Shown: piece after piece, positions 6,925-14,481 of the stretch | How the letters are laid out: each line of letters starts with the position of its first letter | How positions within the stretch are numbered: the stretch's first letter is position 1 | Virus record (IMG/VR): IMGVR_UViG_2526164651_000005 | Direction: 5' to 3' (one strand) | Source: a virus | Lineage: Duplodnaviria; Heunggongvirae; Uroviricota; Caudoviricetes | DNA: 16,069 nt | Position numbers and translations under genes: made by a program | The notes under the pieces: model-generated | Told to the model about the DNA's origin: nothing | The model's input: only the letters and a program-made list of their open reading frames with translations | The model's database searches: none

Positions 6925-6953
6925 TATTTGTTCGTGGTTGTTCCACGTTGTTC
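6925..6953. repeat. Three TTGTTC units at exact 10-bp phasing (TTGTTCGTGG / TTGTTCCACG / TTGTTCACTG) preceded by TATTTGTTC; candidate protein-binding array upstream of the capsid operon
   Basis: Read directly: TTGTTC at 6928, 6938 and 6948. A 15-bp stretch (TTGTTCCACGTTGTT) is repeated exactly at 14467..14481. Confidence 0.45.
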
Positions 6954-7029
6954 ACTGAGCGGATCGGCATATTTTACCCGAACTGAATCATGATTATTCT
7001 CGCCCGTGGTGCCAGGACGCTGGGGCCAC

Positions 7030-7167
7030 TTTCCCGCCTGTTAATGTGCTCGCCAATATTCATTACCAGGCGGGAAAACGATCGGTGCGATTACTGATTT
7101 CCTTATGAAAAACGGTTGAGTGTTTGCCGCGTCCTGGAGTTCCTTACTTAACCCCAGGACTTTTTTT
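7030..7167 (+). promoter_or_regulatory. Structured leader of the capsid operon: perfect 11-bp long-range stem (7030..7040 with 7067..7077) and a terminator-like hairpin (GTCCTGG 7131..7137 with CCAGGAC 7154..7160) followed by T7 abutting the capsid ATG
   Basis: Inverted repeats read from the sequence. The T7 run occupies the position where a Shine-Dalgarno would be expected. A second CCAGGAC copy at 7012..7018 could pair alternatively with 7131..7137. Confidence 0.4.
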
Positions 7168-8325
7168 ATGCAGAGAATAATCGAATTACGCCAGCAGAAA
7201 ACCGCCATTAAAAATCAGATGCGCGACATGCTGGAGAACGCTGAAAAAGAAAACCGCAGTCTTAACGATGCTGAGGGCGCAAAATTTGACGAATTACGCG
7301 CTAAAGCTGAATCCCTCGCTAAAGACATTTCCCGCCTTGAAGCCATTGCAGACGAAGAGCGCAGCAAGCCAGGTAAAAGCAGCCAGACCACTGACCCCGC
7401 AGAACTACGCAACTACATTCTGACCGGTGAAACCCGCGCATTAAGTACAGGCGTTCCCGCTGATGGTGGTTATACCGTTATCCCTGAACTGAACACCGAA
7501 ATCATGCGAATGCTGGCGGATGAATCCACCATGCGCCGCATCTGTACCGTGAAGAAAATCAGCAGCAACGAGTTTAAGCAGCTTGTTTCCGCTGGCGGTG
7601 CGACCGTTAACCACGGTGAAGAGGGTAAGGCACGCGAACAGACCAGCACCCCGCAGATTAACGAGGTGAGCATTAAGCTGTATCCGGTCTATGCGTACCC
7701 GCGCACCACACAGGAAATCGTGGATTTTTCCGATGTGGACATCCTTTCATGGCTGACGGGTGAGATTGGCGACACCTTCACGGAAACCGAAGAAAGCGAT
7801 CTGGTTGTGGGCGACGGTGACAAAAAAGCAAAAGGTTTTTTATCCGTACCCCGTGCAGAGAAGAACGACAAAGAGCGTGATTTTGGTACGTTGCAGGTAA
7901 TTAAACCTTCCGAATCTCTGGCGTGGACATCTGCGGACCCGCTGATCGACCTGAAATTTGCATTACGTAAAAAATACCGCAAAAACACGGTCTGGGTGGT
8001 TAACTCCACGACGGCGGCAAAACTTCAGAAGGTGAAGAACGCGAACGGTGATTATATCTGGCGCGACCGTTTACAGGCGGGTGATCCTGATACGTTGCTG
8101 GGCCTTCCGGTCGAATATCTGGAGTTTATGCCTGATAACGTTATTGCCCTGGGTGACTTCAAACGCGGTTACTACATTGTTGATCACGAAACAGGTGTTC
8201 GCACCAGACCGGACAACCTGACAGAACCAGGATTCATCAAAATTTTCACGCAAAAATATTTAGGCGGTGGCGTGGTGGATTCGAACGCGATCAAGATTCT
8301 GGAACTGCCGGAAGACGACGATTAA
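7168..8325 (+). CDS. Major capsid protein, HK97 fold family, 385 aa
   Basis: Coiled-coil-like N-terminal delta/scaffold region (MQRIIELRQQKTAIKNQMRDMLENAEKE...) followed by a capsid body of typical HK97-like length. Gene context (protease and portal downstream). The track start at 7120 (GTG) was rejected in favour of the ATG at 7168. Confidence 0.9.
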   Translation: MQRIIELRQQKTAIKNQMRDMLENAEKENRSLNDAEGAKFDELRAKAESLAKDISRLEAIADEERSKPGKSSQTTDPAELRNYILTGETRALSTGVPADGGYTVIPELNTEIMRMLADESTMRRICTVKKISSNEFKQLVSAGGATVNHGEEGKAREQTSTPQINEVSIKLYPVYAYPRTTQEIVDFSDVDILSWLTGEIGDTFTETEESDLVVGDGDKKAKGFLSVPRAEKNDKERDFGTLQVIKPSESLAWTSADPLIDLKFALRKKYRKNTVWVVNSTTAAKLQKVKNANGDYIWRDRLQAGDPDTLLGLPVEYLEFMPDNVIALGDFKRGYYIVDHETGVRTRPDNLTEPGFIKIFTQKYLGGGVVDSNAIKILELPEDDD

Positions 8326-8335
8326 CAGCATACAG

Positions 8336-8364
8336 AAGGGGCTAAAAAGCCCCTTTAGTGTTTT
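8336..8364 (+). terminator. Intrinsic terminator-like hairpin after the capsid gene (AAGGGGCT-AAAA-AGCCCCTT, then TAGTGTTTT)
   Basis: Perfect 8-bp GC-rich stem with a 4-nt loop immediately after the capsid stop; the downstream T-tract is interrupted, suggesting a partial terminator. Confidence 0.5.
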
Positions 8365-8937
8365 ATGGGTGAAAAAATTATGAAGAGTATGGAAATCCGG
8401 TCATCGGAAATCACCACCAGCGGAGCCGGCACGCTGACGGGCTACGTTGTTCGCTGGGATAAGCTTTCAGAACTGTTATGGGGTGAGTTTTACGAAAAAT
8501 TCCAGCGGGGGGCGTTTACTGAATGGCTTGCGGCGGGTAATGACGTTCGCGGCCTGTATGAGCATGACCACAGCATGTTACTGGGGCGCACCCGTTCCGG
8601 CACGCTGAAACTGGAAGAGGACGAAACAGGGTTACGCTTTGAACTGACCCCACCGGATACCAGTACAGGGCGCGACGTTATCGAACTGGTTAAGCGTGGG
8701 GACATCTCGGGGATGAGCTTTGGCTTTCGCTCCCGTAAGGATGTATGGGATACCACAACAGATCCATGCGTGCGCACCGTGCTGGTGGCGGAACTGTACG
8801 AAATTACCGTTACATCGGTACCGGCTTACCCCGATTCCGGCGTGGAGCTGGCCCGCCGTTCCCTGTATGAGCAGCACCCCGAAAAAATGCCGCGTGCGGA
8901 TAATCGCCGCTGGTGGGCGGATTTAGCGGGGGTGTGA
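8365..8937 (+). CDS. Prohead maturation protease, HK97 family (about 185-190 aa)
   Basis: Size, position between capsid and portal genes, and HK97 prohead-protease-like sequence (…HDHSMLLGRTRSGTLKLEEDETGL…). Start is ambiguous between ATG 8365 and ATG 8380; the latter has GGGTGA upstream. Confidence 0.85.
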   Translation: MGEKIMKSMEIRSSEITTSGAGTLTGYVVRWDKLSELLWGEFYEKFQRGAFTEWLAAGNDVRGLYEHDHSMLLGRTRSGTLKLEEDETGLRFELTPPDTSTGRDVIELVKRGDISGMSFGFRSRKDVWDTTTDPCVRTVLVAELYEITVTSVPAYPDSGVELARRSLYEQHPEKMPRADNRRWWADLAGV

Positions 8938-8938
8938 T

Positions 8939-13508: not shown

Positions 13509-13521
13509 TGAGGTCAGCAGC

Positions 13522-13803
13522 ATGACAGAAGCCGAAATACTGCGATTAATCCGCCGCGTCTCTGGAATCAGCCAGCAGGCTGACGAACAGACCACGCAGC
13601 CGGACAGCGTGACAGCCGAAAATTATGCGCGTGTTGTTGCTGAGGTGATGCGCCGTGATGGTATCCAGCTTAATGATGCGGATATGCGCGACATACGGAT
13701 CCGCGTTCTGGAAATGCTGGCCTACAATCGCCGCGTTGAACTGTATCGGGAGAAGGAGAAAATCACGTACCACTGGAAGAAGCCGGAGCGGTTACGGCGG
13801 TAA
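13522..13803 (+). CDS. Hypothetical protein, 93 aa (last ORF of the element)
   Basis: GAGGT about 10 nt upstream of the ATG. No recognisable family. Confidence 0.45.
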   Translation: MTEAEILRLIRRVSGISQQADEQTTQPDSVTAENYARVVAEVMRRDGIQLNDADMRDIRIRVLEMLAYNRRVELYREKEKITYHWKKPERLRR

Positions 13804-14052
13804 CTCACTGAGATTAAAGCAAAGCGCAAAATTGCGCTGGCTACATCCCTCACATCTGAGGACTGTTAACCAGCAGGCCGGAATATATTCACAAACTACG
13901 AAATTTTCGCAGTTTAATTACTCGTCAGCTTAATCGCTAACCCGCTCTGATATTTTCGGAAACCTCAATTTGAGGAAGTCGGCGAGGTAACTGTTTGATA
14001 TTCCCGATAGCGCAAAAATGCGCGGTCGGGCAGAATGACCACCACCTCAATC

Positions 14053-14088
14053 GTGACGGAGAGTGACAACCAGTGACACACCGTGACA
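14053..14088. repeat. Four GTGAC(A) motifs at exact 10-bp phasing (14053, 14063, 14073, 14083); candidate binding array for a recombination or regulatory protein
   Basis: Read directly from cGTGACggag aGTGACaacc aGTGACacac cGTGACaaaa. The helical-repeat spacing places all sites on one DNA face. Confidence 0.45.
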
Positions 14089-14140
14089 AAAAGACGGTTT
14101 AACCGTTCATTAAAAATCGACGTGATTTTGTGCTTTCCGG

Positions 14141-14165
14141 ATGACGTGGCCAACGTCATTTTTTA
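14141..14165 (+). terminator. Rho-independent terminator (ATGACGT-GGCCA-ACGTCAT followed by T6)
   Basis: Perfect 7-bp stem with a 5-nt loop and TTTTTT at 14160..14165. On the minus strand no U-tract follows, so it is orientation-specific to the plus strand. Confidence 0.6.
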
Positions 14166-14466
14166 GCGAAAAATTCTGATTAAGGTCACTGGCTGAACGG
14201 TCATAATGACCACGCAGACCATCGAGGCAACCATAGCGATCATCGTTACGGTTGGAGCTTTTCCGCCATTGGTGGAAAAGGTGCACATCTGGATCATCAT
14301 TACGGTGATCAAGGGTATGTAAAACCCACCAGCCTGATTAAAGGTTAACCGGAAAAAAATCCGGTAGCCCCGTTATGGGGATCCCCATATCGACATTAAC
14401 GCCCCTCATGAATTGGTGCGCTTCCCCCTGGAAAGATTACCCGCCTGTATATTTCTTGTGTCTATT

Positions 14467-14481
14467 TGTTCCACGTTGTTT
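14467..14481. repeat. Second copy of the 15-bp motif TTGTTCCACGTTGTT (also at 6938..6952)
   Basis: Exact 15-bp identity between two loci about 7.5 kb apart in the same element; both are preceded by TATTTGTTC. Confidence 0.5.

Follow-up and report, generated by a model that had tools for sequence, protein, structure and literature searches.

Ten-bp-phased TTGTTC arrays in a capsid-forming phage satellite of Escherichia coli: candidate operators of AlpA

The stretch of 16,069 nucleotides analysed here (IMG/VR record IMGVR_UViG_2526164651_000005; the window) carries the 15-mer TTGTTCCACGTTGTT at positions 6938-6952, upstream of the capsid operon, and an exact second copy at 14466-14480, close to the right end of the element, which raises the question of what two loci so far apart have in common. 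The initial annotation gave the first copy correctly and placed the second at 14467-14481, one base off. It also described each copy as preceded by TATTTGTTC, which applies only loosely: at copy 1 this 9-mer (6925-6933) is followed by GTGG and then by the 15-mer, and at copy 2 it lies at 14463-14471, where it overlaps the first six bases of the 15-mer instead of preceding it. The two registers arise because both sites are 10-bp periodic arrays, a structure that had been missed together with the extra copies.

The exact repeat had been regarded as unlikely by chance, which is overstated for the 15-mer alone. Of the dinucleotide-shuffled versions of the window, 16.5% had an exact direct repeat of at least 15 bases (mean 0.17), so that the repeat taken alone is weak evidence. 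Other exact repeats of this length in the window are the ori iterons, twin terminators and a Chi-containing 16-mer.

Layout of the element and structure of the arrays

The window is a cf-PICI, a capsid-forming phage satellite of E. coli, inserted at the 3' end of phoQ. A tyrosine integrase gene of the P4/IntS type (1..1230, plus strand; Pfam Arm-DNA-bind_3, Phage_int_M and Phage_integrase) starts with its ATG at the first base of the window, and the left att arm therefore lies outside; this arm is seen in the near-identical Shigella element L003, whose integrase is 99.5% identical. The gene alpA (1605..1793, plus strand) encodes a 62-aa winged-helix regulator/excisionase (PF05930, E 5e-18), which is the proposed binder of the arrays. 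The att core GGACATATTT (14601..14610) marks the junction with host DNA and overlaps the phoQ stop codon; empty-site genomes match the window from 14601 or 14604 onwards, and the same 10-mer is found at both ends of L003.

The 15-mer consists of two adjacent units of a 10-bp-phased direct-repeat array with the consensus TTGTTCCnnn, and the window contains three such arrays. The first, with the five units TTGTTCGTAG TTGTTCCGCA TTGTTGCTCA TTGTTGCACG TTGTATCTGT, is located on the minus strand at 1273..1322, directly 3' of int and approximately 285-330 bp upstream of the alpA start. The second, TTGTTCGTGG TTGTTCCACG TTGTTCACTG (6928..6957, plus strand), is situated upstream of the capsid gene and holds copy 1, whereas copy 2 is held by the third, TTGTGTCTAT TTGTTCCACG TTGTTTCATA (14456..14485, plus strand), in the right att arm. 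This right-arm array lies about 120-145 bp from the att core and 13 bp from the doubled motif GGTGTAGTTAAT GGTGTAGTCAAT (14499..14522, plus strand). The same composite of array and doubled motif occurs in the left arm of L003, which contains two further arrays. The doubled motif comprises exactly four half-sites, is confined to the two att arms and changes with the integrase clade; from this pattern it likely represents the arm-type sites of Int.

A period of 10 bp was found at every array site of the window and of the L003 left arm. The information content in a matrix of 43 distinct units is 1.3-2.0 bits at positions 1-5 (TTGTT) and falls to about 0.2 bits at positions 8-10; as read from these units, the array repeats a short site at every helical turn. 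The motif family (up to two mismatches) gave four matches in the window, with 0.05 expected and none of 200 shuffles reaching that number. TGTTYN5TGTT occurs five times with 0.43 expected, and phased TGTT pairs number 8 in the window and 11 in L003, with 0.9 expected in each. Among the repeat families of the window no homology between the two 15-mer loci was found outside the arrays.

The capsid-upstream array is part of a compact intermodular region. An intrinsic terminator (6887..6904, plus strand; identical copy at 6524-6541) insulates the capsid operon against transcription from upstream and falls at a point where modules of the mosaic are joined (matches break at query 283-309). It is followed by the conserved box TTTTGTAAATTAT (6915..6927, plus strand), immediately 5' of the array, with 11 invariant columns across the cf-PICIs of E. 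coli, Rosenbergiella, Citrobacter and Erwinia, while the array after the box varies by lineage. Downstream of the array a putative weak sigma-70 promoter of the capsid operon (6973..7000, plus strand) is formed by TTTACC (-35, 6973-6978), a 16-bp spacer and TATTCT (-10, 6995-7000); a consensus scan gave no strong promoter at this site, and the assignment draws on a reading of the sequence and on equivalent hexamers conserved in the alignment. With a start at about 7007, the array would lie upstream of the -35 hexamer, at about -80 to -50. The capsid leader of the window has a hairpin and U7 right before the ATG, which are not conserved in the other lineages of the alignment.

Conservation and covariation of the arrays

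The array downstream of int and upstream of alpA, with three to six units, is present at 68 of the 69 loci with an AlpA of 89-100% identity, where the core is invariant and the spacer bases are variable; it is missing only from L197, for which the sequence 5' of alpA amounts to no more than 223 bp. The capsid-upstream array was found in every element with an HK97-type capsid, including those with capsids only 63-73% identical, and is kept in elements with other integrase or replicase types. Among 5426 E. coli genomes, 406 contain the capsid-upstream array and 882 the right-arm composite, each at a median of one place per genome. The right-arm array also occurs in the same context at about 50 viral-contig loci, and is retained at three or more different integration sites. 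In E. coli O157:H7 Sakai and 86-24 the two kinds are each represented by one copy; as in the window, both are on one strand, with 7.6 kb between them. The cf-PICI of O157 belongs to the lineage of the EcCIEDL933 prototype. Two outcomes that the initial annotation had named as fatal, a frequent host-genome repeat and conservation of neither copy, are both contradicted by these distributions: the genome copies are always in satellite context, not dispersed as REP/ERIC-like repeats, and related elements keep both.

Exchange of the replicase leaves the arrays as they are: no change is seen between elements that have a D5_N primase, P4-like CTGTTCACC iterons, a RepA helicase or a DUF927 replicase. 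With regard to the integrase, the arm arrays and the capsid-upstream array behave differently. In the HE-PICI L002 and in L203, an element at the hpt site, the integrases are about 42% identical, the doubled arm motifs are different and no phased TTGTTC was found in the arms, but both keep the box and the array in front of a capsid gene with no more than 63% identity. Each encodes an AlpA-like protein with the common recognition-helix signature R-[ST]-x-R-[YW]. In the element L285, discussed below, the arm arrays follow Int; in L002 and L203 the capsid-upstream array does not.

In the cf-PICIs L005 and L006 of Citrobacter and Erwinia an HTH_17 protein takes the place of AlpA, and 10-bp arrays with a TACYY (TACYC) core occur at equivalent positions (5 with 0.2 expected and 4 with 0.3 expected). 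These arrays are located in both arms of L006, in the left arm of L005 and upstream of the capsid gene in both, so that this second lineage repeats the pattern of att and promoter sites. The covariation spans two lineages with complete arms, the viral contigs of further lineages ending at the integrase gene.

AlpA as the candidate binder

AlpA falls into PHROG 2790, "excisionase and transcriptional regulator". The best PDB match of its AF2 model (pLDDT 87) is the GIsul2 excisionase (8c3t, TM 0.79), followed by matches to RdfS (8dgl, TM 0.66) and TorI. AlpA is needed for the induction and excision of PICIs and cf-PICIs and activates its own promoter (PMC6092414, PMC11773190, bioRxiv 2022.09.08.507074); the AlpA of EcCICFT073 does not activate Pint (PMC6092414). 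A published AlpA DNA site in PICIs was not found in the searchable literature.

On balance, the arrays are probably cooperative binding sites of AlpA, which would serve as both excisionase and activator. They have the features of an array for a recombination directionality factor (RDF), namely one-turn direct repeats in an att arm, adjoining candidate Int arm-type sites, in an element that encodes a winged-helix RDF, and those of a dual-function operator, with TTGTTC units both in the arms and 5' of alpA and of the capsid operon. AlpA would bind the phased operator cooperatively with one monomer per helical turn. As an RDF it would occupy the arrays adjoining GGTGTAGTTAAT x2 in both arms and help Int to excise the island. 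As a transcription factor it would act on the array upstream of alpA in positive autoregulation, and from the three-unit array, upstream of the weak promoter behind the terminator, it would turn on the capsid/packaging operon. The helper phage would induce alpA first, and excision would then be coupled to capsid production. With AlpA at the att arms and at the promoters, the two exact copies would be two operators of one regulon. The proposal comes close to the "shared activator site" of the initial annotation, whose broader notion of one protein with two binding sites finds support.

Several observations count against AlpA. The EcCICFT073-like element L285 (AlpA 65% and Int 78% identical) keeps TTGTTCG arrays in its arms, but has at the position downstream of int an AATATC x3 array together with a TGTTYC pair of no more than two units. 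One motif consequently need not serve both for autoregulation and in the arms, and the arm arrays track Int no less closely than they track AlpA. Upstream of alpA, the array has an inverted orientation, at a distance of approximately 130-200 bp from the predicted alpA promoters. The inactivity of EcCICFT073 AlpA at Pint also counts against the proposal. In the O157 PICI L136, which has the same AlpA and a lambda-type capsid module, no array was found before this module.

It is rather unlikely that another protein reads the arrays, be it element-encoded (PerC-like, or the product of a small ORF 5' of the array), a host response regulator or a CII-type activator of the helper phage. The direct-repeat period of 10-11 bp is typical of OmpR/PhoB-family regulators and of lambda CII. 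TorR, a host response regulator reading direct repeats, has the box CTGTTCATAT, which is similar to the array, and CII-type sites have the form TTGC-N6-TTGC. The array core is TTGT rather than TTGC, and the capsid-upstream array is situated upstream of the -35 hexamer, not straddling it. The core motif differs between lineages whose hosts are related Enterobacterales, which speaks against a conserved factor of the host, and nothing similar to the arrays was found in 50,697 phage genomes. On the other side, the inducer of alpA is encoded by the helper (PMC6092414). PerC-like and phrog_1957 genes adjoin the capsid-upstream array, but L203 has arrays without an annotated PerC-like gene, no homologue of either the PerC-like or the phrog_1957 gene (o6565) was found in L006, where arrays are present, and in L204 the small ORF 5' of the array has become a pseudogene. 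The position of arrays inside both att arms beside the Int sites points to a role in recombination, which counts against all these candidates.

Binding by the integrase itself is unlikely. The arrays would then be arm-type sites for the N-terminal Arm-DNA-bind_3 domain of Int, and the copies downstream of int and upstream of the capsid gene would be additional Int sites (autoregulation or architecture) or relics. This reading draws on the presence of arrays in both arms at fixed positions relative to the core, beside the doubled motif, and on L285, in which the arms keep TTGTTCG and the same doubled motif alongside an Int of 78% identity, whereas AlpA is only 65% identical and the array 3' of int differs; furthermore, the authors of the HE-PICI study were undecided between Int and AlpA as binder of the doubled motif (PMC10111431). 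It requires, however, two unrelated arm motifs for one Int, of which the doubled motif with its restricted occurrence is the better candidate, and arrays are also found away from the att core, by 1.3 kb (1273-1322) and 7 kb (6928-6957). In L002 and L203 the capsid-upstream array persists with integrases that use other arm motifs. In KplE1, where the domains of IntS are arranged as in this Int, the RDF sites are formed by the phased GTTCG repeats and another motif makes up the arm sites (PMC2951348). The earlier suggestion of integrase arm sites is right for the location of the right-hand copy, some 120-135 bp from the att core.

A chance match or a recombination scar without function is very improbable: the frequency of repeats of this length in shuffles would allow it, but the motif family exceeds expectation, the spacers vary around a conserved core, mosaic partners and different genera retain the array with no homology flanking it, and a second lineage has the same layout with a different core. 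Conservation refutes this reading. P4 type I iterons are TGTTCACC, and resemble the third unit TTGTTCAC. A paired replication element of the ori/crr kind, bound by the primase-helicase as in P4 and compatible with the CTGTTCACC iterons 3' of the primase in some related elements, is nevertheless largely refuted and hardly conceivable, as the window iterons downstream of the primase (TGTCTACC / TAAGGTAGA, 5457-5699) differ in sequence, identical arrays occur with four unrelated replicases and do not co-vary with the replicase allele, and the arrays lie in att arms and a promoter region, not in an AT-rich origin.

With AlpA as the probable binder, a broader reading can be offered tentatively: each lineage possibly has its own operator "address code" (TTGTTC with AlpA, TACYC with HTH_17) at both att arms, the regulator gene and the capsid/packaging promoter, by which one RDF-type protein would directly license excision and capsid production. 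If so, morphogenesis would be independent of helper late regulators and co-resident satellites would not cross-talk. AlpA has been described as the master switch of Gram-negative PICIs, and the arrays would add a candidate operator and a candidate regulon of excision, autoregulation and the capsid/packaging operon. If confirmed, this would account for the timing of capsid production in cf-PICIs once a helper has induced them, provide a sequence signature by which the att arms and late promoters of many satellites, hundreds in E. coli and Shigella, could be annotated, and offer orthogonal protein-operator pairs (TTGTTC and TACYC) for engineered PICI vectors.

Comparison with known systems

The likeness to ori/crr of P4 consists in a short repeated motif at two distant places of a satellite genome; the motif described here differs in that it is not a replicase iteron and is found at att arms and a promoter region. 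AlpA of Pseudomonas aeruginosa is a winged-helix antiterminator that raises lysis-type genes from the element GGGACGN5GGTA, with subsites about one turn apart (PMC7969949). The hairpin and U7 in the capsid leader of the window are a further parallel. The P. aeruginosa element is placed between the -35 and -10 hexamers, from where the protein travels with RNA polymerase, whereas the satellite array lies upstream of -35; among PDB chains, no sequence match to the P. aeruginosa protein was found. In helper-embedded PICIs (HE-PICIs) a doubled attP motif, tgTGTATTGCantgTGTATTGCa, has been reported (PMC10111431), whose positional counterpart in the window is GGTGTAGTTAAT x2, with two co-oriented copies, one per arm, at distances of about 80-100 bp and 135-145 bp to the core. 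That study covers the doubled motif; the TTGTTC arrays and their recurrence at alpA and the capsid operon are not described there.

Apl of phage 186, Cox of P2 and Vis of P4 are dual RDFs and regulators acting on one-turn direct repeats at att and at promoters, as the arrays would be used. Vis controls the late promoters of P4, and Apl and Cox repress early promoters, whereas activation is proposed for the capsid operon of the satellite. The direct repeats of Apl are one turn apart at att and at pR-pL, and efficient binding needs three adjacent operators (PMC7498355). Vis is a relative of the PICI AlpA and is required for excision (PMC6092414, PMC11963761). RdfS of the Mesorhizobium symbiosis ICE, a winged-helix RDF, occupies about 40 bp immediately 5' of an Int arm site, with one molecule for every 10 bp, and is in addition an activator of promoters (PMC11963761). 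It differs in having no recognisable consensus and in oligomerising via an extra N-terminal helix, which is absent from the AlpA model, while the satellite core TTGTT is sharply defined.

KplE1 (CPS-53) of E. coli K-12, with IntS and TorI, has an integrase of identical Pfam architecture whose gene likewise points inward from attL. Like the satellite arrays, the TorI sites of attL are 10-bp-phased direct repeats, here of GTTCG, in two blocks that adjoin the IntS arm sites and PintS (PMC2951348). These RDF repeats, CAGTTCGTCA TGGTTCGCTT CAGATCGTTG, lie with their GTTCG core between the att core and int. TorI and AlpA are distant, with 26% identity over 42 aa, and TorI is a weak HTH_17 match. The TorI sites reported in PMC2951348 are located at attL only and repress PintS, whereas the satellite arrays are found in both arms and, in addition, upstream of alpA and of the capsid operon.

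Phased repeat arrays in the island

The window is a capsid-forming phage-inducible chromosomal island (cf-PICI) with genes for int (1-1230), alpA (1605-1793), a D5_N-type primase (3692-5443), a PerC-like protein (6340-6501), an HK97-type capsid protein (7168-8325) followed by protease, portal and connectors, HNH (10778-11218), terS (11507-11863) and terL (11847-13508). On the right the island borders phoQ, and element-free genomes align from 14601 or 14604 on. Because the window begins at the int ATG, the left att arm is absent from it; the Shigella element L003 (int 99.5% identical, all genes about 99%) served as complete reference copy.

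The 15-mer TTGTTCCACGTTGTT occurs twice on the plus strand, at 6938-6952, as the initial annotation had it, and at 14466-14480, one base lower than described there. The 9-mer TATTTGTTC, said to precede both copies, lies 4 bases ahead of the first and overlaps the second. Two alignment registers are possible because both sites are 10-bp periodic. The assertion that such a repeat is unlikely by chance does not hold for the 15-mer alone, since 16.5% of the dinucleotide shuffles of the window contain a direct exact repeat of at least 15 bases; the other exact repeats of this length in the window are the ori iterons, the twin terminators and a Chi-containing 16-mer. The case thus rests on family enrichment and conservation. 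Within the window, the 15-mer family with up to two mismatches has 4 matches (0.05 expected), TGTTYN5TGTT has 5 (0.43 expected) and phased pairs number 8 (0.9 expected). An exact 15-mer scan of viral contigs also gave many unrelated chance matches in metagenomic contigs, which were set aside.

Two units of a direct-repeat array with 10-bp phasing make up the 15-mer. Five units on the minus strand (1273-1322) stand directly 3' of int, about 285-330 bp before alpA; three units (6928-6957) lie upstream of the capsid gene with a terminator (6887-6904) and the conserved box TTTTGTAAATTAT (6915-6927) just 5'; three more (14456-14485) are located in the right arm, and L003 has two further arrays in its left arm, in the core-to-int interval. 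The consensus of 43 distinct units is TTGTTCCnnn, with 1.3-2.0 bits at positions 1-5 and about 0.2 bits at positions 8-10. The post-int array is present in 68 of the 69 viral-contig loci whose AlpA is 89-100% identical, with 3-6 units, a fixed core and variable spacers; the sole exception, L197, has just 223 bp of sequence upstream of alpA. Arm arrays were seen wherever flanking sequence is available, and the box with a three-unit array was found in every element with an HK97-type capsid, including those with capsids only 63-73% identical. Among 5426 complete E. coli genomes, 406 carry the capsid-upstream array and 882 the right-arm composite, the median is one place per genome for each, and all copies lie in intergenic DNA that carries no annotation; O157:H7 strains Sakai and 86-24 have both kinds, one copy each, 7.6 kb apart on one strand. 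The motif is therefore no frequent host repeat and both kinds of array are kept across related elements, so that neither objection foreseen by the initial annotation applies. Searches of both array regions with blastn against 50,697 phage genomes found no relative.

Other repeats were observed in the window. A perfect 16-bp palindrome, CAGTATGCGCATACTG (1248-1263), which is kept in most loci with the same AlpA allele, lies after the int stop codon and before the post-int array and may be the operator of a dimeric protein or an int terminator stem. An unrelated 10-bp-phased array of four GTGAC units, GTGACGGAGA GTGACAACCA GTGACACACC GTGACAAAA (14053-14085), sits in the accessory region from terL to the right arm. 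Thirteen Chi sites (GCTGGTGG) occur in 16 kb, nine on the plus strand (885, 2046, 4736, 6107, 6369, 8781, 8909, 9913 and 13136) and the others on the minus strand (4472, 8414, 10358 and 14326); Chi is also part of the exact 16-mer repeat TATCAGGCTGGTGGGC, at 2040 and 13130, and of the inverted copy of this repeat (14321-14338). These sites may protect linear packaged or concatemeric DNA against RecBCD.

Attachment arms and the doubled motif

The att core GGACATATTT (14601-14610) overlaps the phoQ stop codon and is found at both ends of L003. Each arm contains, in the same orientation, a TTGTTC array, 13-14 bp, and GGTGTAGTTAAT GGTGTAGTyAAT. The doubled motif (GGTGTAGTTAAT twice) is confined to the arms, at 14499-14522 in the window and at 2734-2757 in the left arm of L003, 22 bp 5' of the int ATG. 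Between doubled motif and core, the window has GGCTTGACTTGACTTGATG (14570-14589) where L003 has GACTTGATG (17300-17315); the difference is 10 bp, one helical turn, and the rotational phasing of the arm sites versus the core is preserved.

The positional counterpart is the doubled tgTGTATTGCantgTGTATTGCa of the helper-embedded PICIs (HE-PICIs), also seen in the HE-PICI L002. A doubled arm motif has been published only for HE-PICIs, and the authors were undecided whether Int or AlpA binds it (PMC10111431). The motif changes with the integrase clade: GGTGTAGTTAAT in the window family, GGTATCCTATA in the Citrobacter and Erwinia elements L005 and L006, TATCACTCGG in L203 (hpt site), TTAGTTATACG in the Gilliamella element L007 and TAGGCCCA in CP4-57. 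For this reason, the Int arm-type sites are more likely to be the doubled motif. In E. coli K-12 CP4-57 (L357, 540-640), the archetypal AlpA/IntA element, phased GTCCC/GTCCG/ATCCG repeats are followed by doubled TAGGCCCA 5' of intA. This same order suggests that the layout of array for a recombination directionality factor (RDF), doubled arm site and int is general in this integrase family.

Candidate binding proteins

On the sequence comparisons, AlpA is the probable binder of the arrays. It belongs to PF05930 (E 5e-18) and to a PHROG annotated 'excisionase and transcriptional regulator', and among the structural matches of its confident AF2 model (pLDDT 87) are the GIsul2 excisionase 8c3t (TM 0.79), MerR/CarH winged-helix domains, RdfS and TorI. 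In L002, which lies within a prophage terL, and in L203, the integrases are about 42% identical to that of the window, the doubled motifs are other ones and the arms have no phased TTGTTC; the box with its TTGTTC array is nevertheless retained before the capsid gene, in L002 as a 39-bp island of 97% identity within diverged DNA. Each of the two elements encodes an N-extended AlpA-like protein 52-60% identical to that of the window. All TTGTTC lineages have R-[ST]-x-R-[YW] as a signature in the recognition helix; it is missing in the second AlpA paralogue of L002, TorI, K-12 AlpA and the L005/L006 proteins. Retention with foreign integrases, together with this signature, ties the capsid-upstream array to AlpA and not to Int. 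In lineages with a single small HTH protein (the window, L005/L006), arrays occur in the arms and at promoters; L002, with two AlpA-family proteins, lacks the TTGTTC array in its arms and has it solely at the capsid promoter. L007 also has two small HTH proteins, in DNA too AT-rich for array calling. A point against the AlpA reading is that no array precedes the lambda-type capsid module of the O157 element L136, which has the same AlpA as the window.

It was reported that alpA is needed for induction and excision of PICIs and cf-PICIs and activates its own promoter, the EcCIMP1 fragment assayed extending from -449 to +50 (PMC6092414; PMC11773190; bioRxiv 2022.09.08.507074), a span that would take in the post-int array of the window. 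As caveats, that array is inverted and far from the predicted alpA promoters, and Pint was not activated by EcCICFT073 AlpA (PMC6092414).

The cf-PICIs L005 and L006, integrated at tRNA-Met, have an HTH_17 protein in place of AlpA. They retain the invariant box, and the three 10-bp units behind it have another core, TACCC. Phased TACYY pairs occur in both elements proximally in the left arm, beside the left-arm doubled motif and upstream of the capsid gene, and in L006 also beside the right-arm doubled motif (L006, 5 versus 0.2 expected; L005, 4 versus 0.3 expected). This covariation indicates that an element-lineage-specific factor reads arm and capsid-upstream sites. The comparison covers lineages whose arms are in the available sequence; the viral contigs of TCCTC-type and other cf-PICI lineages begin with the integrase gene.

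Binding by a factor other than AlpA or Int is unlikely. The TorR box is similar to single array units, but the lineage-specific core speaks against a host factor. The PerC-like protein and the small phrog_1957 ORF were rejected as binders because they are absent or pseudogenes in some array-bearing elements. The PhoP box has an 11-bp period and the lambda CII box is TTGC; these two and the IHF consensus are mismatched to the arrays in spacing or core.

Binding by Int is a still more doubtful reading. EcCICFT073-like PICIs (L285 and 26 loci; AlpA 59-68% and Int 77-78% identical) keep arm TTGTTCG arrays, so that Int tracks the arm arrays there at least as well as AlpA, but the capsid-upstream array persists in L002 and L203 despite their divergent Int and array-free arms. 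At the post-int position, EcCICFT073-like elements have three 10-bp-phased AATATC units (L285, 13084-13113) in 13 of 26 loci and, in 17 of 26, a pair of TGTTYC units; the AATATC array bears on alpA control in that lineage.

That the arrays are replication sites, or the repeat a product of chance, is very improbable. The proposed analogy to paired ori/crr sites fails because the ori-type iterons TGTCTACC / TAAGGTAGA (5457-5699, 3' of the primase gene) differ from the arrays, which are unchanged with P4-like CTGTTCACC iterons (L144, L147, L285), RepA helicase (L136, L204) or DUF927 replicase (L002, L203). In the probable replication origin itself, CTGTCTACC-type direct iterons form two pairs (5457-5477 and 5545-5565), followed by four to five tandem 9-bp TAAGGTAGA units (5664-5699), the reverse complement of the CTGTCTACC-type core; in relatives that have another primase allele, inverted clusters of P4-like CTGTTCACC iterons take their place. 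Elements with the 63%-type capsid/terminase module have, close to their right end, three GCGGGTTAT followed about 80 bp on by three TAACCCGC (L002, 15680-15840; L203, 17000-17160; L204, 17860-18020), with DUF927 and RepA replicases alike; this cluster may serve in packaging (cos) or as another replication site.

Proposed capsid-operon control and known systems

Two identical 23-bp intrinsic terminators, CAGCCGGAGCAATCCGGCTTTTT (6523-6545 and 6886-6908; also delimited as 6524-6541 and 6887-6904), flank the small phrog_1957 gene and presumably insulate the capsid operon. The second coincides with homology break-points between elements and therefore looks like a recombination joint of the replication and capsid modules. 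A consensus scan found no strong sigma-70 promoter near any array. In a seven-lineage alignment, the hexamers TTTACC (6973-6978) and, after 16 bp, TATTCT (6995-7000) are conserved 3' of the array and would form a weak promoter (8/12 versus consensus). Transcription would start about 7007, where a conserved 5' hairpin has its base, and the array would then lie at about -80 to -50, as is typical of activator sites. AlpA, if it is the binder, would oligomerise on the three units and recruit RNA polymerase to the capsid operon. An antitermination mode as for Pseudomonas AlpA is conceivable here, although the binding element of the latter is located between -35 and -10 (PMC7969949).

The whole 171-nt capsid leader folds with z = -4.85; an Rfam scan of the whole window detected no known RNA family. 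The GACG-tetraloop hairpin at the predicted 5' end (7006-7029) aligns in L002, L203, L186 and L004-L006, and its inner stem, CCAG/CUGG in the window and CUCA/UGAG elsewhere, has three compensatory pairs. Abutting the capsid ATG, a second hairpin (7131-7167; GTCCTGG...CCAGGAC, 16-nt loop, then T7) holds the only Shine-Dalgarno-like AGGA in its 3' arm; it is not kept in the other capsid lineages and could be a leader terminator or translational block.

A literature search for an AlpA operator or binding site in PICIs or cf-PICIs found no description; the practical value of the arrays is that they open both the AlpA regulon and capsid-gene control in cf-PICIs to direct tests. The closest experimentally mapped analogue is KplE1, whose IntS shares the domain architecture of the window's Int; its attL has five TorI sites with a GTTCG core, CAGTTCGC/CAGTCCGC and the 10-bp-phased block CAGTTCGTCA TGGTTCGCTT CAGATCGTTG, the two blocks adjoining distinct Int arm sites (PMC2951348). 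At att and at promoters, Apl of phage 186 binds to repeats spaced by one turn, and it requires three adjacent operators (PMC7498355). RdfS binds as one monomer per 10 bp directly 5' of an Int arm site and activates promoters (PMC11963761). The features of such operators that can be read from DNA are present in the island, and by these features the arrays appear to work like those of the dual-purpose RDF/regulators TorI, Apl, Cox, Vis and RdfS, as phased operators at att and promoters.
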